From the IMG/VR virus record IMGVR_UViG_3300046004_002451, positions 1-55,136 of that record: DNA of 55,136 nt; one strand, given 5' to 3'. The notes under the pieces were generated by a model. The model was not told where the DNA came from, searched no databases, and saw nothing but the letters and a program-made list of their open reading frames with translations. The translations under genes and the position numbers were made by a program. Positions within the stretch are counted from its first letter, which is position 1. The number at the start of each line of letters is the position of its first letter. Below are positions 20,866 to 54,842 of this stretch, one piece after another. Source of the stretch: a virus. Taxonomy: Duplodnaviria > Caudoviricetes.

Positions 20866-20994
20866 ATGCCTGGGCTTCGAGATCGATACGTTCGATCTCG
20901 CTTATGGCGAAACGAACGCCACGGCCAAGAAAGGAGGCTTGCAACGCTTTCTTGCAGGCATATGCCTGCAAAATAACGTTGCAAGCATGTGCGG

Positions 20995-23900
20995 CTATCG
21001 GAGGAGCAGCCCTGGGGCTCGGGCTTTGATACGTTCGTATTCGCGCATAGCGGTGTCGAGGGTTTGGCGCTCCAAGCCGGTGAGGCTAGCTCTAAACTTG
21101 GTTTGCTGTTCCTGCCCGCGAATGATCATCAGCGGGTTCTTGTAGAATAGTAGTTGCTGCACGTCCTTAGCATTCTGGATCGGCGCCCCCATGTCTTTTA
21201 GTTTAGCCTTGATATTCGCGATGGCTGCCAAGTTTGGTGTGTCCTGTGCGAGCACGGCAAATAGGGCTTTGCGGGCGCGGCTCTGCGGCGTGGTGCTGCC
21301 GTAGTCCATGCCCTCTGTGCTTGGCACTCCGTTCTTTTTCCGCCAGTCCTCGGCGATTCGATAGAGGTCGGGGGTAGCATTCCGCACGTCCATACCAAAA
21401 AGGGCACGGCCTACGGCCTGGGTAGGGCTGCGTACTTCGAGCGTCTTGTTAGTGCTGCGTTCGCCTGCATGAAGCAGCGTTGCAAAGCCGGTGCCGCCGG
21501 GCAGGAGTGGAGGCAGCACAGTTTTGGCCACATTATCGGCACGCGCTGCCAATTTCTCAGCGGCAGTCATGTTGTTCTCGACAAAGGTGCGGTCGCCAAA
21601 GGTGTCTTTGCCGGTCATCTGGCTGTAGAGCATGGAGCCGATAGGACCGGCCGCTACGAATGAGCGGAGAGTCTTCTGCCACCAGTCTTCGCTATCACCG
21701 CCTTCGACTCGGTTGCCCATGAAATCGACAAACGGGTGGATGGCGGAGATGTCGAACTGTTGCAGTTGCCCCTGGTCACTACGCACGGGCAGAAGCATCG
21801 AAAACAGCGGCACGCCACCGAGCGGCGTCGGGCCGAGGAGCTTGCCCCCCTTCCCTCTCATGTCACGCTTCACCTGCTCCAGCTCGTCATCATCGAGGCC
21901 CATGGCGAGCGCTGATAGGAATGTGATGAGTGATGGCACGGCCAGGCCGGCGGCGAGCGCAATGGGGCGTTCCTTGAGTGCATTGCCAAAGATGCGGATG
22001 CTTTCACGGTAGAAGCCCAGGAAAGGCATGGCGGTGCGGCCAAGTAGTTTCAGGCTGGCACTGGTGCCGCCGTCAAAGTAGGGGAACCAGTGGCGGACAT
22101 GATCACGCGCGGCCTCGTTGGTCATGCCCATGGCTTTCGCCTTAAAGTAGGTGGCGAGTTTGAAGAGTTCATCCTCGGCCTGATAGAGCGCGGCGATTTG
22201 GTTGTAGCTCTTATGCAGCGGGTTCTTCGCCCATTCAGGCAGCACCTTACCAAAAGCCTTGCCGATGCCGAGCAGCACGTCTGGCTTGCCATCATCAGCA
22301 ATAGTGGCGGGATCGGGCAGGAGTTGGCGGAGCGTCTGGCGCAGTTCGGCGCTGACAAAGTCGGCACCGAGCACGCCCATGTCATAGGCTTCTTGGAGAT
22401 CCCTGCCACCGTTGCGCATGGCGCTGAGTGCCTGCTTGTAGAAGGTCACGTTGCCGGGATTCCAAACACTGGTGCCAGCGAGCTGCGAAAAGAACACATT
22501 GCCGAGCACATTGCGAACGTGCGTGCCTGGATTGAGCACGGTCTTGCCAGTCTTCCACCAGCCGAGGAGTGTGTCATAGAGTTGCAGGGCGATGCCTGGT
22601 GCCTCGACCATTTCGAGGAGTTGGCCGGCGATGTCATCCATCACGAAGCGGCCCGCCAAGCGGCCAAAGCGTGGGTTGTCGGGAATCTCGGTGAAGCCAG
22701 CGACTTGGACATCTGAGATCCATTCAGGCTTGCTGGCCACGAAGTTGAAAAACTCCGCCGTGCTGTTGTCATGCACCATCTGCGCCATGTAGCGCGAGAT
22801 CGAGTAAACCGGGTCCATGATGAGGCCGGCGTGCTCTTGTTCATCGACGCTCAGCGGGGCGCGTTTCTCGAATCGGTAACGCTGGGCGCGTGTCAGTTCC
22901 TTGATGCGGCCTTGCAGTTCGGCATTGAGTTTGGCAGGGGCGCGGAGATCGGCCAGCGTGAGGCCACGGTTGGCTTTGTTGCGGCCTTGCAGCTCGGCCA
23001 AGACATTCCCGAGAATGAAGTCCTCATAGAACGCATCGCGGTGGCCCTGGTTTTTGAAGCGCCATTGATTGCCCTGGTGATTGATGAGCCGGGGTTCACC
23101 GGTGGCGTCTTTGTTTTCACGATCCGCGATGTGCCATGCCGTCGTGCGCTGGGCACCGATGTCTTTGAGCCCGAGGCGGAAACGCTTGGTGATGGATTTC
23201 TCACGCTGCACATCTTCCTTGTAGAAGTGCGGCATGTAACCGGCTTGCAAATTCTCGAAGGTTTCGAGAGACATGCGGCCCTGTTTCACGGCCTCGCGGC
23301 CCTGGTCCACGAGCAGCTCACGCAGGCGCGTGGCAAGGTCTTGCAGGGATTGCGGCAGGGCGCTGAGTGGCTCCTCACCCTTCATGGCGAGGTAGAGTTT
23401 CCGGCGCCACATCGGGTTACTGGCGAACTCCGGCGGGTAGGCGATGTCGGAGAACTTGGGATTGCCAGAGAGCGCGCGGACAAGGTCCATGGCCTTCTGA
23501 CTGCCCACGGCGGTCTTGATCTCCATCTCACGCTTGTGAGCAGCGACCTCACGCGGCAGCACTGAGTCCGGGAAGAACTCACGCTTGAGCGCGTGCGCGG
23601 CTGCCACGAAGGGCTTGGCATTTGGCGCAGACTGCCACTTGGCGACGGCGTCACCGGCTCCCGTGCTGGCGTTAAGGTGCGCAGCGAGGTCGGCGAGCTT
23701 GGCACTGGCGGCGCGGTCCAGGTGGTTCCAGCCGAGGGCGGCGAGGGGGGAGGCTGTTGTCGGAGCCTTCTTGCTTTGGGCAAGAACGGTGCCTTTGAAG
23801 AGGATGTTGTTCGTCTCAGGATTGAAGCGCTGGCTGAGCGGGATGACCTTGCCTGATTCGTCGCGGGTCACGGGGTCGGCGGATTTGATCTGGTTCGGGG

Positions 23901-26900
23901 TGAACGCAACCCAATCGTCCCGGTAAACATTGCCATCCGTATTACTCTCACGCACAACGATGCCATCAAAGCCGAGTTGTTGTAACCTTTCGCGGATTTG
24001 TGATGCGGGTATTTTTCGACTACTGCGGTAATCTTGGAGTTCTTCAAATCCTTCAAACTCCTTTGGATTTTTGATGAACAGAAAAGCATCCGTGACACTT
24101 CCAACTGATGTATCTCCGATTAGAAGATCACCCTTCATCTCCCATTTTTCAGGACCGCCTTCAAAACGATTGGCAAATTCTGCTGCTACTTCTTCCGCGT
24201 TCCCGGCATACTCCGATGAGTTGGATGGGGCCGCAAACCACACGCCAAGATGACGTGTGTGTGTGGAAACCTGATCTGCTGGCACCTTGAAAATCTGAAT
24301 ACCCTTTTGCGTGGTGCCATGGTAGGCGTGCATGGCTTCACCTTTGAAGAGAACAGCACCCGCCTCCTTCGCCGCCTCGTCCACCATGCGCTGAGCCTTC
24401 GCTAAGTCCCCGGCGGCCACGGCCTGCATGTATTCGGCGTCGTTGTTGGCAGGTGCCACGGTGCCTTTGAAAAGCCGGTTGGCCCGGTCGCCGAGTTGCT
24501 GGGACTGTTTGGCGGCTGCCTGCACAATGGCACCAAGGCCTGAAACATTCTTGAGCGTGTCGGTCGTGAGGAGGCCGATGACTGGGTCATTGATGCGGGC
24601 GTTTCCTTGGTGGTCACCGATGTAGTTATCTTCATGCAGGTCGAGCACGAGCCATGGGCGCCCTTTGACGATGGCGACTTGGGCGCGTTGGCCAGCTTTG
24701 GCGTGGGCACGTAGGCTATCAGGTATATCGACGGCGCCTGAGCGATTGAGGGAGATGTCACGGCGCTCCATGCTTCTGCCGGTGTCACTGCCGATATTGG
24801 GCCTCGGTGACATAGGTTGTTTCAGGTAGATGTGGCCATCAGCACCGATGGCGGCTATCTCAGTGGGGGTGCCACCCATGTCAGACATGACGGCTAAGCG
24901 CACTGCAGTTGCTCTAGGGTTCTTAGCCGGTTGGTAAGACCACTCCAAGCGTTTTAGATTGGTATGGCCGACGTGCGGCCAAATACCTCCACTGGGGTTC
25001 TCGGAGAAGTCCTTGAGCTTCTTGTAAATGACGCCGGCTGCATGGTCGAGATAGATCATGGACTCCACGCCTGCATCATTCACGGGCAAGGCACGAATAG
25101 CCTGCTCCTGAGCTTCTGTCAGCACAGGCACACCAAAGGCTTGAGCCAGCTCAGCGGCTAGGCGTGGGCCGGGGCTCCAGTCGAAGTTTGGGCGCGCAAA
25201 GGCACCTCCCTTCCTAAGTGGTCCAGCTTCATTGAGGCGGTCGAAATGGACATCGCGTATCGCTTGTCCTTGTTCAGCGGTAACTCGTGATCCTCGAATA
25301 AACGATTTTCCGGCAGTCCGGCTGTCCAGTTGATTTGTGACTCCTTCATGATCGGTACCATACACCGATTTATTGCTCATTGCAAGGCGCTCGGGGCGGT
25401 TCTCGGGGTCTTCCTGTTCAGGTCGGAGTTCGTAATTGTAAACTTCCTCGTCGGTAAGCCGGCGGTTGTAGTCGAGGTAGCCATGGCGGCTGCCGCCTTC
25501 AGTATGTGCAATCAGCCCTTCAGTAGGGTGCGTGTTAATGCCTGGGGGTCTGGCACGCATTTCATAGCGGTAGCTTTTGGGCGCTTCTGGCAACTTGCCA
25601 TCACGGCCAGACATCAGTGCTTTGATGGCAGAGGCTCGTTCATTATCGGCAGTGACCGGAGTAATCAACGAGGGGGTGAGGCCGAGGACTTCGCTCGGGT
25701 CATCGAGGAAGACGTGGGCTTTAACTTTCTTGCTCCACCTGCCGCCGGCGGATTCGAGGGCGCGGTTCACCTTCTCGTATAGCTTGCGGTCGAGCGTATC
25801 AGGCAGCACGAGCCGGTTAGCGGTGATGACGGCGCTTTCAATGGCGCGTTGCACCTCGGGACTCATGAAGTCGGGATCAGGCGCCTTCATTGGGCCAAGT
25901 GGCTGGCCGTTGACTTTAGGTGGGCCTTTGGGGGCATTCGGGTCCGGCTCCTGGTGAGCCCCGGCCTTTTCAGCAAGCCGGGCAGATACGGCTACGTCTT
26001 CGGCTTCGAGCGCGGCAAGGCGGTCGTGGTCTGGCCAGGCAGTCGCTCTGGAAAGCGCCTCGCGAAGTTTGGCTTCGGCCGCGGTATCGCGGATAATGTC
26101 ACGGTCGATTTGATCAATCGAATCTTGCGCCACGCCGGCTCTGCTGCGCAAGCGGTTGATGAGTCCGGCGGGTCCGTTGAAGCTGTTGCCCCAAGTACTG
26201 GCTGCTCCGTCACTGTCCAGAATGCTGCCGGGGGTGTCCTCACCGATGGCGGTGTGGACCTCGATGAACACGGGCTTGCCGTTGATGTGCATGGTCAGGG
26301 GTTTGCGCTTCTGTCCGGCGCGTTCCATGATGATGCTTTGCTCGCGCAACCAAAGTTCCATTGGCTTGGTGATGCCTTTGAAATCGGGAGCGGCGGTGTC
26401 GATGACCGTGCCGCCAAACTCATAGACGGCATCACCAGAGATGTCGGTTTCCGGGCGCACGCCTTCGGGTCGTGGAGCGGTGCGGACCCATAGCTTTTCA
26501 GCGGCGGCTTTCCTGGTGACTTCCTGGGCTCGGTAGAGCGGCGCGTTGCGCAGACTGGCTTGATAGCTCAAGAGGCGGGATTTGCGGCTGCCGTGCTCGC
26601 TGAGGTGGGAGTCACGCAGGAGGCGGAGATCCTTGATTTCCTTCTCCAGCTCAATCTTGCGGATAAAGTCGAGGTCTCCCAGGGTCCGCGCGGCCATTTC
26701 CGCAAGGTTGACGGCCATCGGGTCTGTAGGGTCGTCAAACACGTCGGAGATGTCCTCTCCCATGAGTAGCTGGGTGATGGCGCGTTGTTTGCGGGCGAGT
26801 GCGCTGTAAATGGCGCTGTCCATGCTGCCCTCGGTGCCGTAGTTAATGATGAACACGGGTTCATTCCAGGTGTCCACGCCTTCCACCTTGGCGGCGTGCA

Positions 26901-35900: not shown

Positions 35901-38900
35901 GGCGAAATGCGGCGAGGGGGCGCAGAGATAATTGCGCGACAAGAGCTTCACTGAGTTTGGAGGCATCAAGTAAGCCAGTCTTTTTCTGGATGGCCTTGGC
36001 GGCGTCCAAACTACTGAGAGCACCGGCCGCCGGAGTGGAAACCGGAGTGGAAACCGGAGTGGAAACCGGAGTGGAAACCGGAGTGGAAACCGGAGTGGAA
36101 ACCGGAGTGGAAACCGGAGTGGAAACCACCTTGGAAACAAAGCGCTCTGCAACACTGAAAGTCCTGCCTCCAGGCGTGATAGCCGGGTATGACCATGCTT
36201 GGTCTTCCTTGTTCCAAACAGGTTCACCAGTCACGGTAAGATTACCCTCAGAGCGGTAAACATCTGAGAAAATCAAACTGCCTTTAGGAAGGTCATGCTT
36301 TGGCGCTGGGTGTCCAGGGGCCGGCGCGGCTTCCTCGTTGCTTGGTTGTGCGGGAGGCGCCTCCACGGCAGGGGCAGCTTCCTGAGTGAAGGTCTTACCT
36401 GTAGCGAGGGCGAAGAGTTCAGCTTTGGTTGGGCGCGGCTCGTTGCCAAATAGGCTTGTCTGTTTGGGGTCTCCGGCTGCGTCTATGGCTTTGGCGTAGC
36501 GGTCGAGCGCGGCTAGGAGCTGCTTGGGCTTCCGGCGGTGATCATGCAAAGCTGTGACGAGGGTTTTCTCAAAAGCCGATGGTGCCTCACCAATGCCGGC
36601 AAGGGTCTCCTGTGCTGACCATGATTCTACAGTATCACCTCGGGTTTTGATGTCCTGGTAAGTTGCGAGTGCTTTGGCCAGCTCTTCTGTGATGCTGAGC
36701 GGATAGAGGGCGCCGGCGCTGATGCGGCTATTCTGCTCGGCAAAGCGTGGTGCAATCGCGATGAGGGCATTAACCAGATTCCTGCCTTCTCCATTGATGT
36801 CCTCGGTAAGGGTGCTGAGTGCGCCTAGTGTTTCTTTGCTGTCGCCATAGGCATAGACAAAGAGCGCATTACGCAGTCGGCGCAGCCCGGTTTGCGAAAG
36901 ATTGCCTTGGGCGTCGATGATTGCCGGCCTTTCAGCGGGTGGAACAATGTCGCTGATGAAGCCGCGAATGAACTCGGCATTGGCTTGAGTGAATACTTCA
37001 CCCTCTTCATTCGGGACAAAGTTCTCGAAGTGGTCCGGGACAATCTGCTTAGCATCAATCTTGGCCTGCTCAATTTCCCGCTTTGGTGCGATCGTGCTGA
37101 CATTGGCAGATAGCACGAATGCTACACGGTTCACCGGCGTCTTGCGAATCCGCACGAGCACCGGGTTCTTAATTTTACCGACTTCGGCGGCATCGAGGCC
37201 AAAACTTGCAGCCTTCGCAAGGAGCGCTTCCCGATATGTGGCGGCTGCTGGTGACTGATTACCATGGGCACGCCGGGCACCCATCATTCGGCCATTGCCT
37301 GACTCAACGACTCCATCATCCCCGATAATTGGCGCACCATCGCCGACTCCATTACTGGCGCTGAGGCGGTCCAAGTTGAGGTTCTTCGCGATGTCGATTA
37401 CCTGGGATTCACTGCCGGCGCTGGTGCGGTCGCGCGGCTGTAATTCCTGAGGGTATTCAGGATTGATACGCCCATCATCCTTATTCGAGATTGTGAGGCT
37501 GTTCACATCGACAACGGCCCATTCGTAATCAATGGCATCGTTCGCGTCGGTATATGCGGTGCCGCTGGTGCCGGTGACGGGCTTGAAATCAGCGCTCGCC
37601 GTGGCTTTTGTCTGTGGTAGCGGCGCAGCGCCAGCCAGCACCGCTGCCCGGTTGTCGGTGGTAGTGTCCACTCCCGTCACTTTTCCGGGCTTGGGTGGGA
37701 CATTATTTGTCTGACCCCCTGATATTTCCTTCGTAGTTACCGCGGCTTTTGCCGCCGGCCGCAAAGTCGGCATCGAGGCCAGTCGGGACGGGTCGCCCTG
37801 GCTACGAGCTTGAAACTCAAGCACGAGTTGGCCGATTTCATCCACCATAACGTTCAACTCGTCTTGCAGTTCCGGGCTGGTTTGGCTGATGAGATCCTTG
37901 AGCGCTTGGCCAAGATCCTTAAGCATGTCCATCAGCCACTTGGCGAGGCTCTTATCCTGAGCTGCCGCTTCGGAGACCTGCCCGGCAAAATGACGGTCCT
38001 GGACCAACATGCGCGCGAACTCGTGCATGAGATGCCATTGCCGGCCCGCGCTGAGGTCGGTAGGCATCTTGGCCGGCTGTTTCTTGTTGGCGATGTCGAT
38101 GGCGTGATAACTGCTCCAGACCTTCTGGCGAAGTGCTGGAGTGAGTGATTGCCAGCGTTTGACCAATGCACCACGGCCATATTTCTCGGGCTTACCCTGA
38201 GCAATTTTAAGGACGGCTGCATGAATGGCTTCCTCCACAAGTGATGCGGTAATGCCTTCATTTACATTCGTGATATTCCTCATCTCGTGGATGAGAGCGC
38301 CAAGATTGATAGCAAGCACCATGTCGCCATTCAACTCCTGGACCGCTATGGCATCCCCGCCAAGGATAGCTTTTGCTGAGTCGCCCAAAGCAAGCTTTGA
38401 AAATAGGAGATGGTTCGAGGCAATGGCCCTCTCCAGTGCGTTGAGAGTTGCCCGTGCCGCCTTCCTGCTTTCGGCCGGCAGAGTAGTGAGTGCTTGTAAC
38501 CGCGCGCGCGCCCAGGCTGCATGGCGCCGGAGATCGGCCGGCCGGTCTGGCGTGACGGCTACGGTTTCAGGTTCAGTGGTATCATTTGATACCGTCGAGG
38601 CTTCGACTACGGGGCTGCCATCCGGGTTGACCTTACCTTTGGTAAGTTTGCCATCGTTGGCGGCATTCTCTTTCTCGGCGAGCCATTGCAAGAAATGTTT
38701 CTGGCGGGCTGCTGCGGAATCAGGCGCCAATTTGAGCTTCCGGCTTTTGAGCATGTGGGCGATAGCGGCATCGAGCCGGCCACCGAATGACGCAACATAC
38801 TCATCGGCTAGGGCTGCCGCCTCTTCTTGGCTGTAGGGTCCAGAACCGTCCCTGTAGAGCATTACGGCAATCTGCTCACTGCGTTCCTGCTGTGGGTAAG

Positions 38901-41900
38901 ACAGGGTAGGTGGGGTTTTCAGGCTGGGTTTGGCCTTGATCACGGGTCGCTCAGCGACGTTTGAGCGTGACTCTGGCGAGTCGCTCACGGGTCGCTTAGC
39001 GCCTTGGTCGGCTGGCTTACTTGGCGCTGAATTGACGTTTTGCGGAGACAGTTTTGCATCGAGATCAACCGGCGCTGTGAGTGGATCACTTTGGGAATGG
39101 GCAGGTGATAGAGACCCGGTGATTCCAAGCGCCCGCAAAATCTTCGGGTAATCCTTGCTGACGGCTTGCTCCATGTAGCTTTCACCGACGACTCCTTGAG
39201 TTGCCACAAGATGCTCGGCCACTTTGGCTGCCTCTTCCTCAGTCAAACCGAGATCGGCGAAGTGTCTGGTAAACTCCTCGACACGCAGAGCCGCGGGAGA
39301 TTGCTCTCCCGCAGCCGGCGCCGGTGCGTTTAGCAGCGCGTTCCCTTGCCCTTGGCGCCCTTCTTGGCTTCCTGGCTGGTTTTCATGTGTGGTTGTGCTT
39401 TGTGGGGTTTCCGGGCTATTCGCCCCCGGTGTGGCGGTCGGCTGGGCTGACACAGGGGTTGCGCCATGATCGGCTGGAATGGCGGCAGCGACTTCGGGCA
39501 GGTGTTCGGCAAGGATTGCGCGATAGGCGGGTGCAACGGTGATGTTGCCGGCAGTATCCACTTCAAGCACGGGCGGACCAGCATAGCCTTTGAGAGCTGT
39601 AGGCGGTGCATTGAGGTCTGTCTGTCCGTCTTTGTTGCGGCGCGTCCAGCCGGCTGCGTTGAGTTGTTCCTCCTCCAGGTCAGCGGCGCTGCCACCTTGC
39701 GCGACGGCGAGAGCGGCGCTGGCTCTTGCCTGCATGGGTGCCACTTCCTCCGGGCGCACGGTCGGATGGTTGGCCAGTTGGTCGATGGCACTCCAAGCTG
39801 CTGCTGCCACTTCTGGCCTAAGTGCTGGGTCCATTTGGGGTGCAGTAGCTACCGGGGCAGCGCCGGCCGCTCCGGGTTGTGTCGCGTCACTGCGCTTCAT
39901 GCCAGTCTCGCGGATTCCCTGAATACCTTCACCCATGCCACCCAGGCCGAATATGGCGATAGAAAGCTCTGGCAACGACTCAACAAACTGGGCGAGCGCT
40001 TGGGGCACACTCTGCCCGGTGCCAACGGCTGCTGCGACTGTGCTGAAAAGTTCGTCGCCGATTTCCTCCGGCCACTCCTTGAGCCCGCCTTTGACGAACT
40101 CCTTACCGATATACCCCGCGCGCGCCATCTGGCTCGTGAACTGCTTCTTGAAAGCCTCCTTGGCAAGGTTGGGCGTCACGAGCAATTTTGTGATACCTTG
40201 CGCGCCGGTGAGAGTAGTCAGAAGAGCGGTGACACCGCCGGAGAGAATCGAGGGGAGTTGTGCTTGTCGGAGTGCCGTGGCATGACTCATCTCCGGGTTC
40301 TGCTGCCTGAGTGTGGTGTAAATGTCCGCGATTTGAGCCCCGTACGTCTGTGCTCCGCCGGCGACTGCAGAGCCAGCAACTCCGGCCCGAACTATGGAGG
40401 CGGTCGCTTTTGCTGCCTGGGCGGGTGTGGTGGCGCCGCGCAAAGCAGCGGCGAGGGCTGGCAGCATCTTGGCTCCAAAGCCTGTCCTGGCAAATAGGGT
40501 AAGGCCAAGTTGTCCCGCGCGAGCGCCGCCAAAAGCTGGGATGAGGCTGGGCACGAGGCGGCCGAACTGTCCCACACTGCGCAGAGCCAAGCCTTCGGCG
40601 GCACCATGGATTTGTTTATCCAGCTCCATGAGCTGAGAACGCTCATTGAGTGCCTGGGCGCCCTTCATGGCAGTTTCGCTGCCGGTAATGCCGGCCACGA
40701 GTCCCAGCGCCTGGGCGCCAATATCATCGACGCCTTGAGCCAGGCTCATCAGGAGTTGGCGGGTAATTTTGCCGGCGGGCGTAGCGCTGTCTTTGAGTGT
40801 GTCGGCGTAGCGTGCTGCCTGCTCTTCGAGTGCTACGTCCTTGGGCTGTGACTTCTGGAAAGCCAGCCATCCCTCGTCTTGCAGCTTGGAAAGAGTTTCC
40901 AGCGATTGCCGGCCATAGTTGGCACGAATATCCGGCTGAACTGCCATAGCTGCCCGTTTGGCTTCCGGGCTGGCTGGTGCGGCTTCGACGGCTTTAGCGT
41001 ATTCTGCTGGATCGGTGATCTGTGGGTTAATGAGCAACCCACCATTGCCAAGGATACGGTGTTGACGCTTATCGCCGCGCACCTCGTGCATGAACTGTGC
41101 AGCACCGGTGCCAGGTCCAAAGTCCTCGCCATGCTTGCCTTGAATGCTGCTCCAGTCATGTGACTCGACATCGTTCAGGATACGATCGGCTTCCTGTTCG
41201 GTGACTCCAGTAGCTTGCGCCAAATTCTTGCGCGCTTCGAGGAATAGATCGCCGGCATGAGCTTTCAGTGCTGGATTCTCTGCCAGCTTGGTCTTGATAC
41301 CCATGTAAGCAGCCTGAGCGGCCGCATTGGTCTGCACGCCTTGAGCGTGTGCCTGCTCCAGGCGGCTCTGAGTATCCTGATTGAGTGCTTCTGCGGCTGC
41401 TGCGCGCTGCGGGCTACCCTCGGGGTATTGCTCCAAGTCTGCGGCGCGGTGGGCGTGCTCCTGCTCGATGGCAGCGCTTGCGGCGCTGCTTTGCTCCATT
41501 CCTGGAATGAAGCTCTGAACTGCTTTCACATCGCCGGCGCCCTGCTTTTGTTTTTCTTGCACATTTTGGGCAGCTTCATTTCTCAAGTTCACCTCGCGGC
41601 CGTACTCGGCTGCATCAATCTCCAGGAGCTTGCGCTGTTTCTGGTGCTCAGGATCGGCTTGGAGTGTCGTGGTCTGCGCTTGTAGATCGGTCAACTTTTT
41701 CCAGATTGGGGCGTGCCATGTGCTGCCATCGCTGGCGGTCACGAGTTCGCCCGCTGGGATACCGCGCTGCTTGGCCGCATCATTTTCGGCGGTGAGTGCG
41801 GTCTGTTTGGCCTGGGCGTCGATGTAAGGCGCCTCAAGGTCGGCTTGTCGCTGTTGCAGTGTGGCAGCGCTGGCATTCAGAGTTTCATCGGTCTTGTCGA

Positions 41901-42843
41901 TGTGCTGTTGCAGCGCCGGCGTATCCATGTTTGCCAGTTTTTTCCGCTGGAAGGCTTCCCACTTTGCAGGATCAGCTTTTCGTAGATTTAGTTCGGCAAT
42001 AGTCTGGCCGGTCTGCTGGTGGCGTGTGCGCGCTTCATCATCGCCGGCAATCTTGGCTTGGGCAGCCCGGAGTTTTGCGGCGTGTGGTGCTGTGAGTGGA
42101 TCTGCTTCAAGGTCGGTGATGTCGGTCTCATCGAGTTGTGACTCAGGCTGACTCAGGCGGTCCATGCGCGCTTGAGCTGCTTGGGCTTCGGGAGTGGGAG
42201 CTTCATTGAATGGCACAAAGTCAGAGCCTCCTGTGACTCCTTTGGCACGCTCTTGAAGTTTAGGGGTGAGGGCAAAGGTGGCATTTTGATGAGCCGTCTT
42301 GAGTTCCTTCTCAGATGCGCGCCGTTCAGTCATGCTAAGGTGCTGCTGCTGTACGCCCGCCTCGGCTTTGATGCTCTCAATTTGTGAATCCAAAGAACTC
42401 CGCCGGAGATCCTCGCCTTCCTTCGCGCTGCGTTGAGCAAGCACGGCATCTGATTCGAGGGCCGTGAGTTCACCCGTGGCCGGATTCGTGGTGTATTTCC
42501 GGCCTTCCTGCTTCCACTTCACTTCTTGGGCTCCATCCTGCTGCTTCTTGAGCTGGGCGGCTTCCCATGTGGCATCATCCTGCTTCGGCCGAATGATTCC
42601 ATCAGCACCGGTCCACATTGGCCGGCCTTGTGCAATCAGGCTGCCTTCCGTATCAAGATTCTGATTGATTGTCTGCTGTTTGGCGATGTCTCGCTGTGCT
42701 TTGTCTGCCTCCCTTGAGGCTAACTGCTCGGCGCGCTGTTGCTCGCGACTGGCGCGCTGTTCTTCCTGGTCTCTGGCGGCAATTTCAGAGGCGTATTGTT
42801 TGCGGAGGTCGGGATTGTTGGAGAGGCTTGGATCGAAGGGCAT
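20995..42843 (-). CDS. Giant polyvalent DarB-like internal virion protein (7282 aa)
   Basis: Uninterrupted 21.8 kb ORF with ddrB-ParB, NDK, two ART-like (YHGT) domains, N6-adenine MTase (EPSAGNG/NVPF), SNF2-type helicase (GVGSGKS, DEAH, QRNGRIIRQGN), DarA_C-like and kinase-like domains; downstream of portal. Confidence 0.92.
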   Translation of the reverse strand: MPFDPSLSNNPDLRKQYASEIAARDQEEQRASREQQRAEQLASREADKAQRDIAKQQTINQNLDTEGSLIAQGRPMWTGADGIIRPKQDDATWEAAQLKKQQDGAQEVKWKQEGRKYTTNPATGELTALESDAVLAQRSAKEGEDLRRSSLDSQIESIKAEAGVQQQHLSMTERRASEKELKTAHQNATFALTPKLQERAKGVTGGSDFVPFNEAPTPEAQAAQARMDRLSQPESQLDETDITDLEADPLTAPHAAKLRAAQAKIAGDDEARTRHQQTGQTIAELNLRKADPAKWEAFQRKKLANMDTPALQQHIDKTDETLNASAATLQQRQADLEAPYIDAQAKQTALTAENDAAKQRGIPAGELVTASDGSTWHAPIWKKLTDLQAQTTTLQADPEHQKQRKLLEIDAAEYGREVNLRNEAAQNVQEKQKQGAGDVKAVQSFIPGMEQSSAASAAIEQEHAHRAADLEQYPEGSPQRAAAAEALNQDTQSRLEQAHAQGVQTNAAAQAAYMGIKTKLAENPALKAHAGDLFLEARKNLAQATGVTEQEADRILNDVESHDWSSIQGKHGEDFGPGTGAAQFMHEVRGDKRQHRILGNGGLLINPQITDPAEYAKAVEAAPASPEAKRAAMAVQPDIRANYGRQSLETLSKLQDEGWLAFQKSQPKDVALEEQAARYADTLKDSATPAGKITRQLLMSLAQGVDDIGAQALGLVAGITGSETAMKGAQALNERSQLMELDKQIHGAAEGLALRSVGQFGRLVPSLIPAFGGARAGQLGLTLFARTGFGAKMLPALAAALRGATTPAQAAKATASIVRAGVAGSAVAGGAQTYGAQIADIYTTLRQQNPEMSHATALRQAQLPSILSGGVTALLTTLTGAQGITKLLVTPNLAKEAFKKQFTSQMARAGYIGKEFVKGGLKEWPEEIGDELFSTVAAAVGTGQSVPQALAQFVESLPELSIAIFGLGGMGEGIQGIRETGMKRSDATQPGAAGAAPVATAPQMDPALRPEVAAAAWSAIDQLANHPTVRPEEVAPMQARASAALAVAQGGSAADLEEEQLNAAGWTRRNKDGQTDLNAPPTALKGYAGPPVLEVDTAGNITVAPAYRAILAEHLPEVAAAIPADHGATPVSAQPTATPGANSPETPQSTTTHENQPGSQEGRQGQGNALLNAPAPAAGEQSPAALRVEEFTRHFADLGLTEEEAAKVAEHLVATQGVVGESYMEQAVSKDYPKILRALGITGSLSPAHSQSDPLTAPVDLDAKLSPQNVNSAPSKPADQGAKRPVSDSPESRSNVAERPVIKAKPSLKTPPTLSYPQQERSEQIAVMLYRDGSGPYSQEEAAALADEYVASFGGRLDAAIAHMLKSRKLKLAPDSAAARQKHFLQWLAEKENAANDGKLTKGKVNPDGSPVVEASTVSNDTTEPETVAVTPDRPADLRRHAAWARARLQALTTLPAESRKAARATLNALERAIASNHLLFSKLALGDSAKAILGGDAIAVQELNGDMVLAINLGALIHEMRNITNVNEGITASLVEEAIHAAVLKIAQGKPEKYGRGALVKRWQSLTPALRQKVWSSYHAIDIANKKQPAKMPTDLSAGRQWHLMHEFARMLVQDRHFAGQVSEAAAQDKSLAKWLMDMLKDLGQALKDLISQTSPELQDELNVMVDEIGQLVLEFQARSQGDPSRLASMPTLRPAAKAAVTTKEISGGQTNNVPPKPGKVTGVDTTTDNRAAVLAGAAPLPQTKATASADFKPVTGTSGTAYTDANDAIDYEWAVVDVNSLTISNKDDGRINPEYPQELQPRDRTSAGSESQVIDIAKNLNLDRLSASNGVGDGAPIIGDDGVVESGNGRMMGARRAHGNQSPAAATYREALLAKAASFGLDAAEVGKIKNPVLVRIRKTPVNRVAFVLSANVSTIAPKREIEQAKIDAKQIVPDHFENFVPNEEGEVFTQANAEFIRGFISDIVPPAERPAIIDAQGNLSQTGLRRLRNALFVYAYGDSKETLGALSTLTEDINGEGRNLVNALIAIAPRFAEQNSRISAGALYPLSITEELAKALATYQDIKTRGDTVESWSAQETLAGIGEAPSAFEKTLVTALHDHRRKPKQLLAALDRYAKAIDAAGDPKQTSLFGNEPRPTKAELFALATGKTFTQEAAPAVEAPPAQPSNEEAAPAPGHPAPKHDLPKGSLIFSDVYRSEGNLTVTGEPVWNKEDQAWSYPAITPGGRTFSVAERFVSKVVSTPVSTPVSTPVSTPVSTPVSTPVSTPVSTPAAGALSSLDAAKAIQKKTGLLDASKLSEALVAQLSLRPLAAFRLAEGLIKDIQRPKKAEPDAAAAEKATPEELKKQAALAARYPNNNAAPSKRHTWAEGMDPAEYNRLSMGSKAVKPTDEIIDVPSKANLLASLNSGQRFSGPNWYSAGLRALNKALNFATPVELRLTEVSDYGGKIVAEIDGLDVPITKGKLRHSDVGFFFGRQQRKIVTMPVAQPADSKLPAPRLAPQTALKLYRTLTAKQAEAPLTAGQAKALETAERALGQTFMFDAPETSILKPADDLVLERQTASRATFADSSPVQLALFASKKAVELPGVPRTIVDQAISLNNSVWNRVDKATGANLSRFFSAPDTDVVFLVKPIGLEMNGERILEDFIKKHGGIISAKWKGRVTSERMEQHYAEHKGKGFFPKLTGYYEGRDVAAYRVKVRADAIPTLRNLVGKSSVPKNEPSLRSSIVYAGNGAEEGWNNLFTDPKLNSIDNGIHLSDSPEAGARESEIWFGRAAQSAPQPAPASPSLMEVMPGLPREIQQLTEFAHGYAKTQAETFLPAMRQAARKVGLRFLPTLAGDAVSAPRTKNPARQSVPHNLLRTTLQDGQTEEQLLASVERLMPALADLGYQLATDTAGEPFMEYAEGEVVLSLVQDSDTHIDPIVQELRIASPALIKRRTTLYGAASYRLEKALEAFKKWSSWSWTKKRATFAERHMGQRPASAISSASASVNPEASISRPIETASSTASTAQSNPASNNSPIVRLLALGRTHKSAARLSSTERARYFSRASFMSKDMRFQADNQAESRQPTTQEQAQLTLDELMMQAGGARELTGAHALPDAARTLRLGGPARKRFLPQVWAMQKLTYDGMGNPYQSADQLLAEDVLFDIVFNDAGVPVTFAMVKPGIYGYKGTSFGSDGSYGGKQGVHGLLGRLKTPGYWAELSDGPERSARRQGVPIIKAGTAVTMVKRATALEDGLTYERGITGLPTPHIKTAFGRPWNAPQSSEFSTLKKGSVSLWTADTSIDPVYQTGWDDFVSEGSSSFDIFPGAAEAYQKQVEHESKGEVQIRILDGYIRAMHADGTLTSTDPHDANWNYLWEDEQALTQAITGGNQTVMPDGAILEGPGLQILKKGTVYHGTPHKVDEFSLDKIGTGEGVQAYGWGLYFARNVKTAKRYQENLAGKNKANPIDSSSASSRAADLINYYRGNKESAKAELKRQVLDEIVSESEAADIARFIDSTELSTGNLYTLDLLPDEDEFLDWDLPVILQSSKVRAAWLEYQKQEGARRGYPMVISDQITGSAIYDMLAGGTTGLRGFEHAARRASESLAQLGVPGIRYLDGGSRIQDVTEGFVIREEAQARADQLRADGYLEVHVIPRGFEGDAASGKWWVEASKNPTHNYVLFDAKLVKILEENGRPRESQSLAMGRKAVDDTPDLFSFNNGLDLTTLLTPAQNAAKLQQAQTLNLFGDFTDAQPRPTTKRPAQPTRAPRTQEATGTAGGFDDLFGQTGMAGNGLSRNGPLFGDAGQSGGRGGSGANADGGGATSGLGTDGNGEGQSQDLPGDRVPGLRTDGEDPHAGDTNGLVGPFLVIQRNGETSQHNWASNARGQAKDTFGQFFGRDSTGKAVLIKDYNVGRPRPPVGSSDRNFEVPDTVETLAPTGNKAKIQANQDAIKLLKKLEDEQRNASPEEKQVLASYTGWGAFKEAFNEGYEESIRRHWDHRSDKTYMPGYLRSWSENHRDTHKLLKEAMTQEEFDSAALSTLNAHFTAAPVIRAMWKMVEHLGFKGGRAMEPSAGNGHYIGLQPSTLADRTRWQSTELDELTTRLLAKLYPEITVNEQEGGNPARIASGMGFQEARVPNGSLDLFISNVPFHQTGPKKKGFPNLNLHNFFFAHALDKVKPGGLVAFITSDGTLQNRIKQREFIASKGDLVAAFRLPNNAFKANAGTEVTTDIIIIRKPDGTPFKGEAWRDLVEVGRAPVTLKQSDGQLLADLRKEAERLGPITSEDTRDRGAARITVSAPIMVNEYFINHPQNVLGTHTLEGSMYRGGAYAVQAPEGMDVMKALEALIPGLPKNIMGQQAPAANNAGNASRGDKPFSHIERDGKIYEVQPDGSLEEADWGLNPEFVKVWRSWKTVHEATQELIEASIQQGAKESHLDALRARLNVVYDSHVLKHKAISKRYPNAHSFLFGDPAHPLTAALENEVVAIDKKTAKKTYSYKKADILTKRITPPIEAPTTAKNIREALETSLAWTGTLQPTYMAQLLRTDSDTVRQLLDAEADVFEDPATSTYETAESYLSGNVRARLETAEEAAKTDPKFNKNVDALTQAMPERKSIGRITPTLGARWLPMEVYNAFIADQLGGTDTVTYEPAGNSWNFHGPHLFTTEDFGTEKAGPYTLMKHALNMTEPLIYDGKGDDKSLDHQATAAARHALDKMRQAFVTFVKSSEVPVTVMPDEELAGAPTPAPVPVWQASEDAFNVTNNSYVNPQHKGEYLQFPGLNTGHVHTKPFRRAVLARFLSLRRGMMAHGVGSGKSFNLIMLAYELKRLGMAQKPMIVVQNSTLGQFAKSYMQAYPTARVLVPTTKDFEKQNIRRLVAKIATGNWDTVILPHSKFDLISNKDSAVKDYMDSQIQELKEALTRTKDESKVRNLQTILLGLKERRTKMLNDLAERADTAVFWEDLGVDAILMDEAHNYKSLPIITRMGRVKGVPSSKDSQRAINFMLKVRDVQKKTGGKNIFLATGTPVKNSIAEAFIMMQFMAPDILEDYGIRNFDDFATSFGQMVTAPEMAWSGTPKMESRFVKFQNGPALITMIRSMFDVAMGNDKLGLDVPAIDGGEAEMKIIDTTPSNDQFNAWVRSVGELWKGADKEEKEMYGAAPIQTMAAGIAAALDPRLISPTAPDHADSKVNVAIRRVVEIYKAGHERKTTQLIFSDLRNQFKMDYLVPFTGHPFPEYGSAGEFDLYKDMQKKLIASGVKPEHILLMESGWSDDKKTKLFEKVSSGEIRIVIGSTELLGVGVNVQERLKAVHHLMPPRDFTPAMQEQRNGRIIRQGNMHAAKVEGVDTWNEPVFIINYGTEGSMDSAIYSALARKQRAITQLLMGEDISDVFDDPTDPMAVNLAEMAARTLGDLDFIRKIELEKEIKDLRLLRDSHLSEHGSRKSRLLSYQASLRNAPLYRAQEVTRKAAAEKLWVRTAPRPEGVRPETDISGDAVYEFGGTVIDTAAPDFKGITKPMELWLREQSIIMERAGQKRKPLTMHINGKPVFIEVHTAIGEDTPGSILDSDGAASTWGNSFNGPAGLINRLRSRAGVAQDSIDQIDRDIIRDTAAEAKLREALSRATAWPDHDRLAALEAEDVAVSARLAEKAGAHQEPDPNAPKGPPKVNGQPLGPMKAPDPDFMSPEVQRAIESAVITANRLVLPDTLDRKLYEKVNRALESAGGRWSKKVKAHVFLDDPSEVLGLTPSLITPVTADNERASAIKALMSGRDGKLPEAPKSYRYEMRARPPGINTHPTEGLIAHTEGGSRHGYLDYNRRLTDEEVYNYELRPEQEDPENRPERLAMSNKSVYGTDHEGVTNQLDSRTAGKSFIRGSRVTAEQGQAIRDVHFDRLNEAGPLRKGGAFARPNFDWSPGPRLAAELAQAFGVPVLTEAQEQAIRALPVNDAGVESMIYLDHAAGVIYKKLKDFSENPSGGIWPHVGHTNLKRLEWSYQPAKNPRATAVRLAVMSDMGGTPTEIAAIGADGHIYLKQPMSPRPNIGSDTGRSMERRDISLNRSGAVDIPDSLRAHAKAGQRAQVAIVKGRPWLVLDLHEDNYIGDHQGNARINDPVIGLLTTDTLKNVSGLGAIVQAAAKQSQQLGDRANRLFKGTVAPANNDAEYMQAVAAGDLAKAQRMVDEAAKEAGAVLFKGEAMHAYHGTTQKGIQIFKVPADQVSTHTRHLGVWFAAPSNSSEYAGNAEEVAAEFANRFEGGPEKWEMKGDLLIGDTSVGSVTDAFLFIKNPKEFEGFEELQDYRSSRKIPASQIRERLQQLGFDGIVVRESNTDGNVYRDDWVAFTPNQIKSADPVTRDESGKVIPLSQRFNPETNNILFKGTVLAQSKKAPTTASPLAALGWNHLDRAASAKLADLAAHLNASTGAGDAVAKWQSAPNAKPFVAAAHALKREFFPDSVLPREVAAHKREMEIKTAVGSQKAMDLVRALSGNPKFSDIAYPPEFASNPMWRRKLYLAMKGEEPLSALPQSLQDLATRLRELLVDQGREAVKQGRMSLETFENLQAGYMPHFYKEDVQREKSITKRFRLGLKDIGAQRTTAWHIADRENKDATGEPRLINHQGNQWRFKNQGHRDAFYEDFILGNVLAELQGRNKANRGLTLADLRAPAKLNAELQGRIKELTRAQRYRFEKRAPLSVDEQEHAGLIMDPVYSISRYMAQMVHDNSTAEFFNFVASKPEWISDVQVAGFTEIPDNPRFGRLAGRFVMDDIAGQLLEMVEAPGIALQLYDTLLGWWKTGKTVLNPGTHVRNVLGNVFFSQLAGTSVWNPGNVTFYKQALSAMRNGGRDLQEAYDMGVLGADFVSAELRQTLRQLLPDPATIADDGKPDVLLGIGKAFGKVLPEWAKNPLHKSYNQIAALYQAEDELFKLATYFKAKAMGMTNEAARDHVRHWFPYFDGGTSASLKLLGRTAMPFLGFYRESIRIFGNALKERPIALAAGLAVPSLITFLSALAMGLDDDELEQVKRDMRGKGGKLLGPTPLGGVPLFSMLLPVRSDQGQLQQFDISAIHPFVDFMGNRVEGGDSEDWWQKTLRSFVAAGPIGSMLYSQMTGKDTFGDRTFVENNMTAAEKLAARADNVAKTVLPPLLPGGTGFATLLHAGERSTNKTLEVRSPTQAVGRALFGMDVRNATPDLYRIAEDWRKKNGVPSTEGMDYGSTTPQSRARKALFAVLAQDTPNLAAIANIKAKLKDMGAPIQNAKDVQQLLFYKNPLMIIRGQEQQTKFRASLTGLERQTLDTAMREYERIKARAPGLLLR
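25158..25349 (-). CDS. Nested alternate-frame gene (63 aa) just upstream of the kinase-like domain
   Basis: TTGCAA(25385-25380)-17 nt-TATGGT(25362-25357)-7 nt-ATG. Confidence 0.5.
   Translation of the reverse strand: MKESQINWTAGLPENRLFEDHELPLNKDKRYAMSISTASMKLDHLGREVPLRAQTSTGAPAHA
31311..31646 (-). CDS. Nested alternate-frame gene (111 aa) just upstream of the MTase domain
   Basis: GGAGA RBS; helical acidic product with CxxC; host frame here is a Gly-rich linker. Confidence 0.65.
   Translation of the reverse strand: MRNPDQLPNVLHSLLAHPGLKKLLAQPAALTTYLAKQAWPETDSAETDPYSGTPDSQEAAEEAELMPMVEEQLADLELTETEKDNLKTSLATVCPACAQMAKILMPATQTV
33689..33916 (+). CDS. Nested antisense gene (75 aa, acidic helical)
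   Basis: TTGATT(33655)-17 nt-TATCCT(33678)-5 nt-ATG; host frame here is a Ser-rich antisense shadow. Confidence 0.65.
   Translation: MKEALEKYRALSVEDRRAADLCVRPSANNRTMGELFDAGFDWAVEAVDEAVSIGREMLASGFTEADALEIAEAGR
36030..36125. repeat. Perfect 12-bp tandem repeat x8 encoding (VSTP)8
   Basis: CCGGAGTGGAAA x8 with no mismatches. Confidence 0.97.
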
Positions 42844-42870
42844 GAGAGTTTAAGGGTAGTTATTCAACCG

Positions 42871-43539
42871 TTAAGGCTGACCGTTTGGGAATGGGCTTGT
42901 TGAACGAGGGCTGAAAGTCTTCGGTGTAAATAAAGCGGTGGCGGCATTTTGCACGACGTTTGCCAATTTACCGTTTCCGGGGATGATTGCTTGAGCAATG
43001 GCGCCAGGTATAGATACGCCATCAGCTACATTCTTCGCGGTTTGCTGTGCGAAGTTGATCGCTTTTAAGCCGGCGTTGGCGCCAGAAAAAGCAAGGTCCG
43101 GCAACATGCCAATACCCTCGGCAGTTATTCTGGCTGGCACGGAAAGCCGCGGCTCAATCGCGTCGATGGTAGCCTGTGTGTCGTTTGTTAAATTCCGCGC
43201 GGCTTTGCCAATAGGCTTAGCTACCGGCAGTAACGATTGTGAATGAGCACGGCTATTGTTCAGGGCTTGAGTCTCTAAAGTTTTTGGGTCGGCTTTTAGG
43301 GTATCCCATACCCGGCCGAGAATGCTCTTTCCAGCTCCTACAGTGGGTTGAGATACAACCGGCCGCTGGCTATTATTTTGGAGAAAGTTCGACGCCTGCA
43401 TTAGCGGTTTAGATACGCCTTGCACGATTTTTGCACCACCTACCACCGTTGCAGCGAGGGCTTGGTTGCCCGGACTTAGAGCCGGCTGCGCTGGAGCAGG
43501 TGGAGCTTGAAAGCCTGCTTGTGGCATTAGGAGATTCAT
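42871..43539 (-). CDS. Putative internal virion protein
   Basis: 222 aa Ala/Gln/Pro-rich; between portal and the giant gene; ATGA-coupled. Confidence 0.6.
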   Translation of the reverse strand: MNLLMPQAGFQAPPAPAQPALSPGNQALAATVVGGAKIVQGVSKPLMQASNFLQNNSQRPVVSQPTVGAGKSILGRVWDTLKADPKTLETQALNNSRAHSQSLLPVAKPIGKAARNLTNDTQATIDAIEPRLSVPARITAEGIGMLPDLAFSGANAGLKAINFAQQTAKNVADGVSIPGAIAQAIIPGNGKLANVVQNAATALFTPKTFSPRSTSPFPNGQP

Positions 43540-44816: not shown

Positions 44817-44856
44817 GGTGATGATGTGAAAAGTTTGAAACTAGGTGTCATGGGTG

Positions 44857-45141: not shown

Positions 45142-45144
45142 AAT

Positions 45145-47313: not shown

Positions 47314-47385
47314 GGTGGTGGTCTGCACCGGTGGCTGCCTAAAATTTCTGGTGTCAAATACAGATTTAGGTGCCCACCGTGGCGA

Positions 47386-50039: not shown

Positions 50040-50110
50040 GGGCGCCGATTCTGTCTCTAAAGAAACTTCCTTGACTTCGCATTTTTTAGGCAGGCAACGG
50101 TTTGGCCACT

Positions 50111-51232: not shown

Positions 51233-51272
51233 GGTTGTTATCAGGGCGCCATAACCAAACAAACCCAACATT

Positions 51273-52820: not shown

Positions 52821-52830
52821 ACCCCTCAAT

Positions 52831-52868: not shown

Positions 52869-52882
52869 ACCAAACTACGACC

Positions 52883-54282: not shown

Positions 54283-54288
54283 TCTCCT

Positions 54289-54831: not shown

Positions 54832-54842
54832 CGAATCCCTCC

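Follow-up and report, generated by a model that had tools for sequence, protein, structure and literature searches.

Several phage proteins that have been described resemble the one presented here. Polyvalent proteins, which join at least two disparate activities in one chain, include kinase-bearing members from prophages of Verrucomicrobia, where the kinase is truncated, and a plasmid-encoded member of 12,242 amino acids (aa) (Iyer et al. 2017; PMC5512222). In phage P1, the DarB protein protects incoming DNA from type I restriction, and does so in cis (PMC5512222). For gp50, the virion RNA polymerase of phage N4, a review of N4 RNA polymerases that cites unpublished work reports that encapsidation depends on the C-terminal domain and genome injection on the N-terminal domain (PMC4496689). 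The polyvalent protein gp47 (2811 aa) of Stx phage phi24B is found in virions by proteomics and has been proposed to be an ejection protein (bioRxiv 10.64898/2026.04.10.717836). Here, we describe a single giant gene on the viral record IMGVR_UViG_3300046004_002451 (IMG/VR; Duplodnaviria, Caudoviricetes), a linear freshwater phage sequence of 55,136 bp that was analysed in its entirety and is referred to as the window. The product of this gene belongs to the polyvalent proteins of Iyer et al. 2017, for which it is unusually large, and we consider it likely that it is an effector that is packaged in the capsid and ejected into the host.

The giant gene and its relatives

The giant gene takes up 39.6% of the record (21,849 of 55,136 bp), the completeness of which is estimated at ~90% by CheckV. 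Its position is as follows:

20995..42843, minus strand: giant gene, ATG start, 7282 codons, no cysteine (from the open reading frame listing and the translation)

An earlier note on this DNA, made from the sequence alone, had described one open reading frame (ORF) of 7282 aa covering about 40% of the window. The ORF listing and the translation, which has no internal stops, bear this out, and the predicted product has a mass of ~0.8 MDa (7282 × ~110 Da). A chance open frame of this length is not credible, and matches to Pfam and PHROG families are distributed along it. The earlier note had also raised the possibility of an assembly chimera, to which a gene fusion made by sequencing error can be added. 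The metagenomic origin of the record speaks for such an artefact. Logan contigs from three runs were placed on positions 22850-42849: X1, which is a possible source sample, and X2 and X3, which come from other studies of lake or fresh water. In X1, the interval is tiled by three contigs with depths of 214, 218 and 203, with breaks at 24473-24502 and at the 12-nt tandem repeat that encodes (VSTP)8, and nowhere else; these two interruptions are the other point in favour of a chimera. Fragments that are mostly at least 99% alike were found in 30 of 30 bins for X2 and in 27 of 30 for X3, and with lengths of ~0.5-1.6 kb they are evidence of presence, not of continuity. Evidence of continuity comes from independent proteins, as aa 1-2378, 3900-5735, 5836-6132 and 6365-7282 of the giant protein run collinear with P0002, a 6370-aa relative from a different assembly. 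With the even depth across the three X1 contigs, the near-identical fragments in two further studies and a block order that is the same in eighteen relatives, an artefact is barely credible: the giant ORF is real and no assembly chimera.

These relatives come from a search restricted to proteins of 4005-12,744 aa, which gave 58 matches among 686 candidates scored. The best 18 (P0002-P0019; 5409-7441 aa) have the same order of conserved blocks:

aa 1 to ~1300: N-terminal block, in 17 of 18 relatives
aa 1443-2150: block with an ExxH site and a ddrB-ParB domain, in 17 of 18 relatives
aa 3683-5724: DarB core, in 17 of 18 relatives
aa 5820-6133: kinase-like block, in 16 of 18 relatives
aa 6350-7282: C-terminal block, in 18 of 18 relatives, best conserved (55-72% identity)

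Between these blocks, aa 2150-3680 and 6135-6350 are variable. Among the relatives, identity in the DarB core is 40-63% over ~2000 aa, which implies that the core is under purifying selection. The cassettes differ: an NDK domain is common only to the query and P0008, a DarA_C domain only to the query and P0007 (1 of 18 relatives in each case), ART-PolyVal is listed for 2 of 18, and other relatives have families that their sources label zeta toxin, RadC or ATPase. Judged by these comparisons, the giant protein is not unique but consists of a fixed frame with exchangeable enzyme cassettes. The exact domain set of the query was seen in none of the 18 relatives. Even so, the word 'exceptional', which the earlier note had chosen for this combination, overstated the case, as at least 18 relatives share the frame and Iyer et al. 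2017 already contains kinase-bearing and 12,242-aa examples.

A C-terminal module shared with virion proteins

The best-conserved block of the family is the end of the chain, hereafter the C-terminal module:

20998..23796, minus strand: C-terminal module, aa 6350-7282, mostly helical, with hydrophobic helices at aa 6961-6979 (Kyte-Doolittle 2.09) and 7002-7020

Here, the earlier note had seen a helical C-terminus. The predicted structure is indeed mostly helical, and we read this part of the protein as a virion or ejection module. A HMMER search with the module against 1.84 billion cluster representatives gave 2277 matches at E<=1e-3, of which 1204 at E<=1e-10; the 2277 module-carrying representatives were clustered at 50% identity. 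In the 150 matches listed, which are proteins of 150-7022 aa, the matching part is C-terminal or nearly so. A Pfam scan of 27 shorter module carriers returned no families, and the query's own module is likewise unmatched, while 12 of 19 remote module homologues match phrog_22602, a family named 'virion structural protein'.

A module profile built from 36 sequences (A1) connects the giant protein to isolated phages. It matches gp123 of Cellulophaga phage phi18:3 (E 1.6e-39), a protein of 1935 aa that is annotated as virion structural by tandem mass spectrometry (MS/MS), and a 1027-aa protein of Pseudoalteromonas phage vB_Pun_Y3 (E 3.6e-40), whose gene follows that of a 3421-aa ddrB-ParB protein. 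A tblastn search with the C-terminal module against isolated phages gave one weak match only. In vB_Pun_Y3 (OR779980.1; isolated, 48.9 kb), positions 24147-37521 amount to a two-gene version of the giant gene, which makes this phage a possible laboratory model; A1 also has a weak match to the end of the first of these genes, across three TGA codons (E 4.4e-4). The label 'PLxRFG', carried by proteins like that of Klebsiella phage LASTA, was followed up and led nowhere.

The AlphaFold model of the module (933 residues) has a predicted local distance difference test score (pLDDT) of 78.4 and a predicted template modelling score (pTM) of 0.72. Among the predicted viral structures of BFVD, it has 118 matches at E<=1e-3, the top ones being C-terminal pieces of phage polyvalent proteins. 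Among them is a 'Tail protein' of 1114 aa from Anabaena phage A-4L (E 6e-9), and PDB entry 9K3A, described as the A4 pre-ejectosome (PMC12002296), has a chain that corresponds to it in name and length. In a second-look structural alignment, the top five of 967 chains all belonged to phage ejection proteins (two to N4 gp50, two to the T7 core and one to the PhiM1 ejectosome), with Z 5.0-5.6.

The relation to N4 gp50 concerns the core of the module:

21934..22677, minus strand: core of the C-terminal module, aa 6723-6970 (module residues 374-621), aligning with N4 gp50 aa ~3185-3452

For this comparison, the last 351 residues of gp50 and eight other Schitoviridae polymerases (9 sequences) were used as a profile against A1. 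The hhalign run between A1 and these virion RNA polymerase C-termini gave a probability of 89.1% and an E of 2.3e-6 over 220 columns. The real score was 57.6, against 16.8 for a reversed alignment and at most 23.8 for 20 column shuffles, with control probabilities of at most 0.9%. The same region of gp50 was also reached by HMMER on the N4 genome (E 0.0037) and by structural alignment (Z 5.6). A single-sequence hhalign run against gp50 gave 3.5%, and a broadened hidden Markov model gave a domain E of 0.0028 with a whole-sequence E of 0.55. As far as such alignments go, the homology of the module core to the C-terminal end of gp50 appears to be of moderate strength, being convincing only in the profile-profile run.

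Absence of cysteine

The giant protein has no cysteine in 7282 aa, versus 103 in the 9302 aa of the record's other 39 ORFs (11.1 per 1000); at that rate, the chance of finding none is P ~6e-36. The same holds widely among its relatives and among module carriers. The 18 relatives have 12 cysteines in 112,354 aa, and 147 further module carriers have 55 in 314,817 aa (0.17 per 1000), with 121 of the 147 free of cysteine altogether; among the 54 carriers of 2000 aa or more, 44 are. Also without cysteine are phi18:3 gp123, the vB_Pun_Y3 pair and the two ORFs of 426 and 222 aa upstream of the giant gene. In N4 (NC_008720), cysteine is missing from the three ejection proteins gp50 (3500 aa), gp51 (644 aa) and gp52 (150 aa), and also from gp57 and the major head protein, but reaches 11-14 per 1000 in four replication proteins (helicase, polymerase, exonuclease and primase). 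The word 'cysteine' has 0 occurrences in Iyer 2017 (PMC5512222), the 2026 N4 paper and the 2022 ejection-protein review, and the family-wide lack of this residue seems to be new, or at least unremarked.

Position at the end of a portal operon

The giant gene is the last of a run of genes on the minus strand, separated by short gaps, in which the portal gene is followed by ORFs of 94, 426 and 222 aa and then by the giant gene. The main features of this run are:

45145..47427, minus strand: portal (PF23899 SU10_portal, E 3.9e-16; phrog_1216), the first of the large genes in this run
43536..44816, minus strand: 426-aa Ala/Pro/Gly-rich ORF without cysteine, 41% identical to its counterpart in a related phage
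42871..43539, minus strand: Gly/Ala-rich ORF of 222 aa, free of cysteine, immediately upstream of the giant gene
20937..20986, minus strand: hairpin of 50 nt with a nested 22 bp, starting 11 nt past the stop (-36.7 kcal/mol, z -6.6, 0 of 200 shuffles as good)

A related viral contig of 54.7 kb has the same order: a portal (37% identical), an ORF of 495 aa (41% identical to the 426-aa ORF), one of 248 aa and a giant gene. The 222-aa ORF has no detectable similarity to the 248-aa ORF at the same place in this relative, and no family match in Pfam, PHROGs or NCBIfam. The 426-aa product is a candidate ejection protein, and the 222-aa product a candidate small ejection protein. In the surroundings of the giant gene, Pfam and PHROGs recognise the portal, a large terminase, a possible protease and a major head protein, so that it stands beside virion genes. 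A tyrosine integrase is encoded at 4711-6069, and the giant gene is part of the portal operon of a temperate phage.

The hairpin just past the stop may end or stabilise the operon transcript. It was missed by the terminator pattern scan because it has no T-run, only a C/U-rich stretch downstream, and the promoter and terminator pattern scans gave numbers within chance. The ATG of the giant gene has no evident Shine-Dalgarno sequence ahead of it (42844-42870), the upstream ORF ending 27 nt before the ATG.

Domains of the giant protein

The giant protein was scanned as six overlapping 1500-aa tiles against Pfam and PHROGs. At least eight distinct families (Pfam or PHROG) are found along it, which amounts to more than the two disparate activities of a polyvalent protein. 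From the N- to the C-terminus, the features ahead of the C-terminal module are:

40774..42843, minus strand: Gln/Glu/Ala-rich N-terminal region, aa 1-690, part of the N-terminal block
39922..40752, minus strand: cluster of Gly/Ala-rich segments, aa 698-974, moderately hydrophobic (Kyte-Doolittle 1.0-1.33)
37744..38517, minus strand: conserved ExxH block, with invariant E1538 and H1541 (site EEAIH) and a conserved HEF ~65 residues further on
37141..37542, minus strand: ddrB-like ParB, aa 1768-1901 (PF18763, E 3.9e-31, 108.1 bits against a cut-off of 27.6, profile positions 3-121 of 121)
36030..36127, minus strand: VSTP repeat, 12 nt × 8.2 with 100% matches, encoding (VSTP)8, a linker
34528..34962, minus strand: NDK domain, aa 2628-2772 (PF00334, E 1.1e-13, 51.7 bits against a cut-off of 27)
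31819..32664, minus strand: ART-PolyVal-like domain 1, ~aa 3394-3675 (PF18760, 33.5 bits against 31.2 when scanned alone, profile positions 8-47, i.e. 40 of 140)
25954..31326, minus strand: DarB-like pair of methyltransferase (MTase) and SNF2 helicase, aa 3840-5630 (phrog_10089, E 7.5e-277 and 1.1e-162)
~30184-30486, minus strand: MTase part, with EPSAGNG for S-adenosylmethionine binding and motif IV NVPF
~26905-28500, minus strand: helicase part, with GSGKS, DEAH and QxxGRxxR read in the translation
25417..25578, minus strand: DarA_C, aa 5756-5809 (PF18789, E 1.5e-9, 38.6 bits against a cut-off of 27, profile positions 2-68 of 70)
24424..25401, minus strand: minimal protein-kinase-like domain, aa 5815-6140
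23875..24345, minus strand: ART-PolyVal domain 2, aa 6167-6323 (PF18760, E 1.5e-10, 42.5 bits against a cut-off of 31.2, profile positions 3-134 of 140)

Most of these domains had been named by the earlier note, at positions that agree with those of the tools within a few tens of bases. Its ddrB-like ParB, NDK, N6-MTase, SNF2 helicase, DarA_C-like and second ART-like domains are recovered by the family matches given above, its VSTP repeat is a perfect array, and its kinase-like domain is made plausible by invariant residues and a fold search (see below). Two other calls found no support. What had been taken for a zincin-like EEAIH site has only the invariant ExxH, as HExxH is absent from all 7282 aa and no peptidase family matches; the ExxH block has no Pfam match, and a search of the Atlas with aa 1443-1700 returned hypothetical viral clusters only, one of them with LPD23 in 18% of its members. 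A degenerate RelA/SpoT-like region is unsupported, with no Pfam match at E<=10 for aa 2772-3379, no match among PDB sequences and nothing in the Atlas for aa 2785-2990. The first ART-like domain stands in part: it passes the PF18760 cut-off, but weakly and over the beginning of the profile only, with a long insert after the matched part.

The N-terminal region (aa 1-690) is, from its composition only, probably a coiled coil; it has no family match in Pfam, PHROGs or NCBIfam. For the N-terminal 1300-1500 aa, PHROGs and NCBIfam gave nothing significant (the best match for this part and the C-terminal module being phrog_24395, E 0.0053), and a search for stand-alone versions of the N-terminal 1300 aa gave one protein (1119 aa, 26% identity). 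By analogy with the N-terminal domain of N4 gp50, as portrayed in PMC13434306, aa 698-974 are a candidate membrane-interacting region. Low-complexity linkers are formed by the Ala/Pro-rich aa 1000-1440, the VSTP repeat and the Gly-rich aa 3750-3900. The repeat differs between samples, one X3 contig joining 36029 to 36102, which is 72 nt (six units) fewer.

The ddrB-ParB region also matches phrog_5143 and phrog_2299. In the NDK domain, the catalytic His lies at ~aa 2755, where DNGIHLSDSPE aligns with KNVIHASDSPE of a solved NDK (3vvt_A). The domain scores below the equivalog cut-off of NCBIfam (44 versus 155 bits), and its sequence is therefore taken to be that of a divergent NDK-fold domain, not of an orthologue of cellular Ndk. 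Further on, at 32001-34000, the GC skew falls to 0.014 (0.04-0.12 elsewhere in the giant gene) and the GC content to 0.554; this dip, within the variable cassette region (~aa 2950-3614), would fit a recent import.

Within the DarB-like pair, the Pfam order after the MTase is ResIII, SNF2-rel_dom and Helicase_C, i.e. a helicase fused C-terminally to the MTase. Motif IV of the MTase is NVPF, not NPP(Y/F), both in the query and in the consensus of its relatives, and the Pfam family N6_Mtase matches at E 0.014 only, against E 7.5e-277 for phrog_10089. The pair is 28-32% identical to its counterparts in 130 phage records.

In the kinase-like block, K5941, D6068, N6073 and D6086 are invariant in 17 aligned sequences (the query and 16 relatives), with a spacing that we take to be that of D166, N171 and D184 in PKA (catalytic loop and DFG aspartate). 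The model of the block (pLDDT 79, pTM 0.79) retrieves almost only protein kinases in a structural search, among them the bacterial NleH1, OspG and HopBF1, which are small kinases, with Z<=5.7. Foldseek against the PDB gave nothing at E<=1e-3 (best E 0.09), and no Pfam kinase family matches this block or the homologous block of P0019. PF18762, which is listed for P0011 and P0019, was considered as a label for the block and rejected, as it sits outside the part homologous to the kinase-like region of the query. The two ART copies show no pairwise similarity by BLASTP. The YHGT and G(L/V)(Y/W)FA of the ART H-Y-D triad were read by eye in both copies, the Asp not being placed by alignment. No RNA polymerase family was found in any tile (Pfam, PHROGs, NCBIfam) and, judged by this, the giant protein is not a virion RNA polymerase.

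Other features of the record and its host

The record also has a replication initiator, an SSB and a DUF2303 protein (15781-16674, E 2e-45). The last lies in an early region, next to the SSB and the replication initiator, that further encodes a DUF4326 protein at 8939-9520 and a DHH phosphoesterase-like protein at 11276-12169 (phrog_4771, E 8e-44). The large terminase (48117-50039) has 14 cysteines in 640 aa, the highest count of the record, and so contrasts with the cysteine-free proteins of the portal operon. No tRNA genes were found in the window, and megablast of 43000-53000 against a phage collection gave no match. Pfam and PHROGs recognise no tail, adaptor or fibre genes in 1-4673 and 52829-55111, and there is only a weak endolysin match at 2981-3739. 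The host is probably a member of the Verrucomicrobia, because partial relatives occur in Verrucomicrobia metagenome-assembled genomes (Brevifollis) and one member of the family is named from such a genome.

Proposed mode of action and alternatives

The giant protein would be synthesised late, from the portal operon, and be taken up into the capsid through its conserved C-terminal module. Upon infection, the chain may pass through portal and tail one domain at a time, before the DNA or together with it, as a string of ~150-600-residue domains with low-complexity linkers, in the way proposed for N4 gp50 (PMC13434306). The absence of cysteine would prevent disulfide bonds from locking the chain in the virion or the periplasm, and the Gly/Ala-rich aa 698-974 and the hydrophobic helices at aa 6961-6979 and 7002-7020 might make contact with the envelope. 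In the cell, the enzyme domains could refold and be active ahead of all phage gene expression: the DarB-like MTase-helicase pair would counter restriction by modifying or shielding the DNA that comes in, the ddrB-ParB domain might act on DNA or NTPs, the two ADP-ribosyltransferases (ARTs) and the minimal kinase would modify host proteins, and nucleotide pools may be the target of the NDK. Related phages exchange the cassettes that lie between the conserved blocks. If the chain is processed at all, no peptidase domain for cutting it was recognised. The earlier note had likewise seen a polyvalent protein; its P1-type DarB, DdrB and DarA modules are indeed present along with further enzymes, and delivery by the virion is probable. 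We infer delivery with the DNA from the homology to an MS/MS-verified virion protein and from the link to N4.

A number of observations weigh against packaging and ejection. The MuF domain, which is the usual virion anchor of phage polyvalent proteins, was not found in the Pfam scan. Pfam and PHROGs recognise no tail genes in a record that is ~90% complete. The C-terminal module is not universal, because A1 has no match in Klebsiella phage LASTA, whose 4433-aa DarB-like protein follows virion genes. Neither did A1 find anything significant among PDB sequences (A4 chain, E 0.51), nor did Foldseek with the module model find anything in the PDB at E<=1e-3; the wide structural search with the 933-residue model gave mostly short helical matches with Z<=5.6, and every structural Z to solved ejection proteins is below 6. 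The N4 link rests on one profile-profile match at 89%, and in hhalign, neither three N-terminal blocks nor the products of the 426- and 222-aa ORFs reached a probability of 1% with gp51, gp52 or the N-terminal domain of gp50. No N-terminal segment reaches the hydropathy typical of a membrane helix. Finally, the absence of cysteine is not universal in ejection proteins, as gp26 and gp27 of cyanophage A4 are described to form a disulfide (PMC12002296).

Some of these points would suit a polyvalent anti-defence enzyme that is never packaged but made in the infected cell or from the prophage, and confined to the cytoplasm. Every recognised enzyme domain could be active there, and the missing MuF domain agrees with it. 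Still, we think this unlikely, given that the gene lies at the end of a portal operon, that its C-terminal module is homologous to an MS/MS-verified virion protein and that it shares the lack of cysteine with the ejected proteins of N4; moreover, protecting incoming DNA requires the enzyme at entry, as portrayed for P1 DarB acting in cis (PMC5512222). A related thought is that the protein serves the lysogen as a prophage-encoded weapon against superinfecting elements, a possibility that has been raised for host-captured polyvalent proteins (PMC5512222) and to which the integrase at 4711-6069 would lend itself. With its place in a late structural operon instead of a moron position, a virion module and a cysteine signature that indicate delivery, and no sign of expression from the prophage, this role is very improbable.

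Delivery might also be granted and the enzymes doubted, in that the protein would be mainly a structural ejection or channel protein with decayed, inactive passengers. Indeed, the non-enzymatic N- and C-terminal blocks are the best conserved, motif IV reads NVPF in place of NPP(Y/F), ART-PolyVal-like domain 1 covers a partial profile and the NDK domain scores 44 against 155 bits. Decay is nonetheless hard to reconcile with the catalytic motifs that are retained (the NDK His, GSGKS as Walker A, DEAH, EPSAGNG, and the kinase K/D/N/D in 17 sequences) or with a DarB core that is 40-63% identical over ~2000 aa, and we judge it quite improbable, if a little less so than service to the lysogen. Together, the evidence favours a polyvalent effector that is packaged and ejected.

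Meaning of the findings

New or unremarked seem to be the share of the genome that one gene takes up, the NDK cassette, the C-terminal module without Pfam match, the link between this module and the N4 polymerase, and the absence of cysteine throughout the family. Devoting two fifths of the coding capacity to one probably carried protein would take 'bring your own counter-defence' to an extreme. With a fixed frame and exchangeable cassettes, the relatives form a natural catalogue of effectors for the first minute of phage infection, including an NDK and a minimal kinase. The module connects polyvalent proteins to an MS-verified virion protein and to the N4 virion polymerase. More tentatively, and with considerable doubt, one may speculate that it marks a very large superfamily, as yet without a name, of ejection proteins that carry cargo (at least 2277 representatives), with the N4 polymerase as one specialised member; the module would then be a ticket to capsid and tail with almost any enzyme ahead of it, and the avoidance of cysteine would be under selection. 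If this is true, cysteine avoidance could predict ejected proteins from sequence alone. If both marks hold, ejected proteins would be recognisable in metagenomes and the module would be worth trying, in laboratory strains, as a carrier for phage protein delivery.

Comparison with known systems

Like the polyvalent proteins of Iyer et al. 2017, the giant protein combines ART-PolyVal, ddrB-ParB, an MTase-SNF2 pair, DarA and a truncated kinase in one chain, and it shares with them a gene beside virion genes, a predicted delivery with the DNA and, probably, the host phylum. It differs from them in having neither a MuF anchor nor a recognisable zincin peptidase, in its conserved C-terminal module without Pfam match and in carrying an NDK; the terms 'NDK' and 'nucleoside diphosphate' have 0 occurrences in the main text of PMC5512222 (supplements excluded). 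The phi24B protein gp47 has LPD and MuF-C domains, neither of which was found in the query.

The three P1 proteins DarB, DdrB and DarA are internal to the head and protect incoming DNA, and the query has a counterpart of each: a DarB-like MTase-helicase, a ddrB-ParB and a DarA_C. In P1, each of these is a protein of its own and the others depend on DarA for loading, whereas in the query they are joined in one chain, with only a 54-residue DarA_C that is a variable cassette (1 of 18 relatives). The query is 28-32% identical to DarB-like proteins of isolated phages. Klebsiella phage LASTA is likewise an isolated phage with a DarB-like giant (4433 aa), but the module profile has no match in it.

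The module has its nearest solved structures, though weakly (Z 3.0-5.3), in the ejection proteins of T7 (gp16), PhiM1 and cyanophage A4, the last of which differs in that its gp26 and gp27 contain a disulfide according to PMC12002296. By sequence, the vB_Pun_Y3 pair and phi18:3 gp123 have the same C-terminal module and no cysteine, and vB_Pun_Y3 also has ddrB-ParB and ART annotations. These proteins are much shorter (3421 and 1027 aa from two genes in vB_Pun_Y3, 1935 aa in phi18:3), have other cargo and belong to phages of Gammaproteobacteria and Bacteroidota.

Lastly, N4 gp50 (3500 aa) is also a giant that is packaged in the capsid and, as described in PMC13434306 and PMC4496689, ejected through a narrow tail as linked domains. 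It has no cysteine, its last ~270 residues align with the core of the query's module, and its gene is preceded by those of two smaller cysteine-free ejection proteins. Its N-terminal parts and neighbouring genes have no similarity to those of the query. Whereas the cargo of gp50 is an RNA polymerase, that of the query is a set of predicted anti-defence enzymes, and whereas gp50 takes up 15% of its genome, the giant gene takes up 40%.

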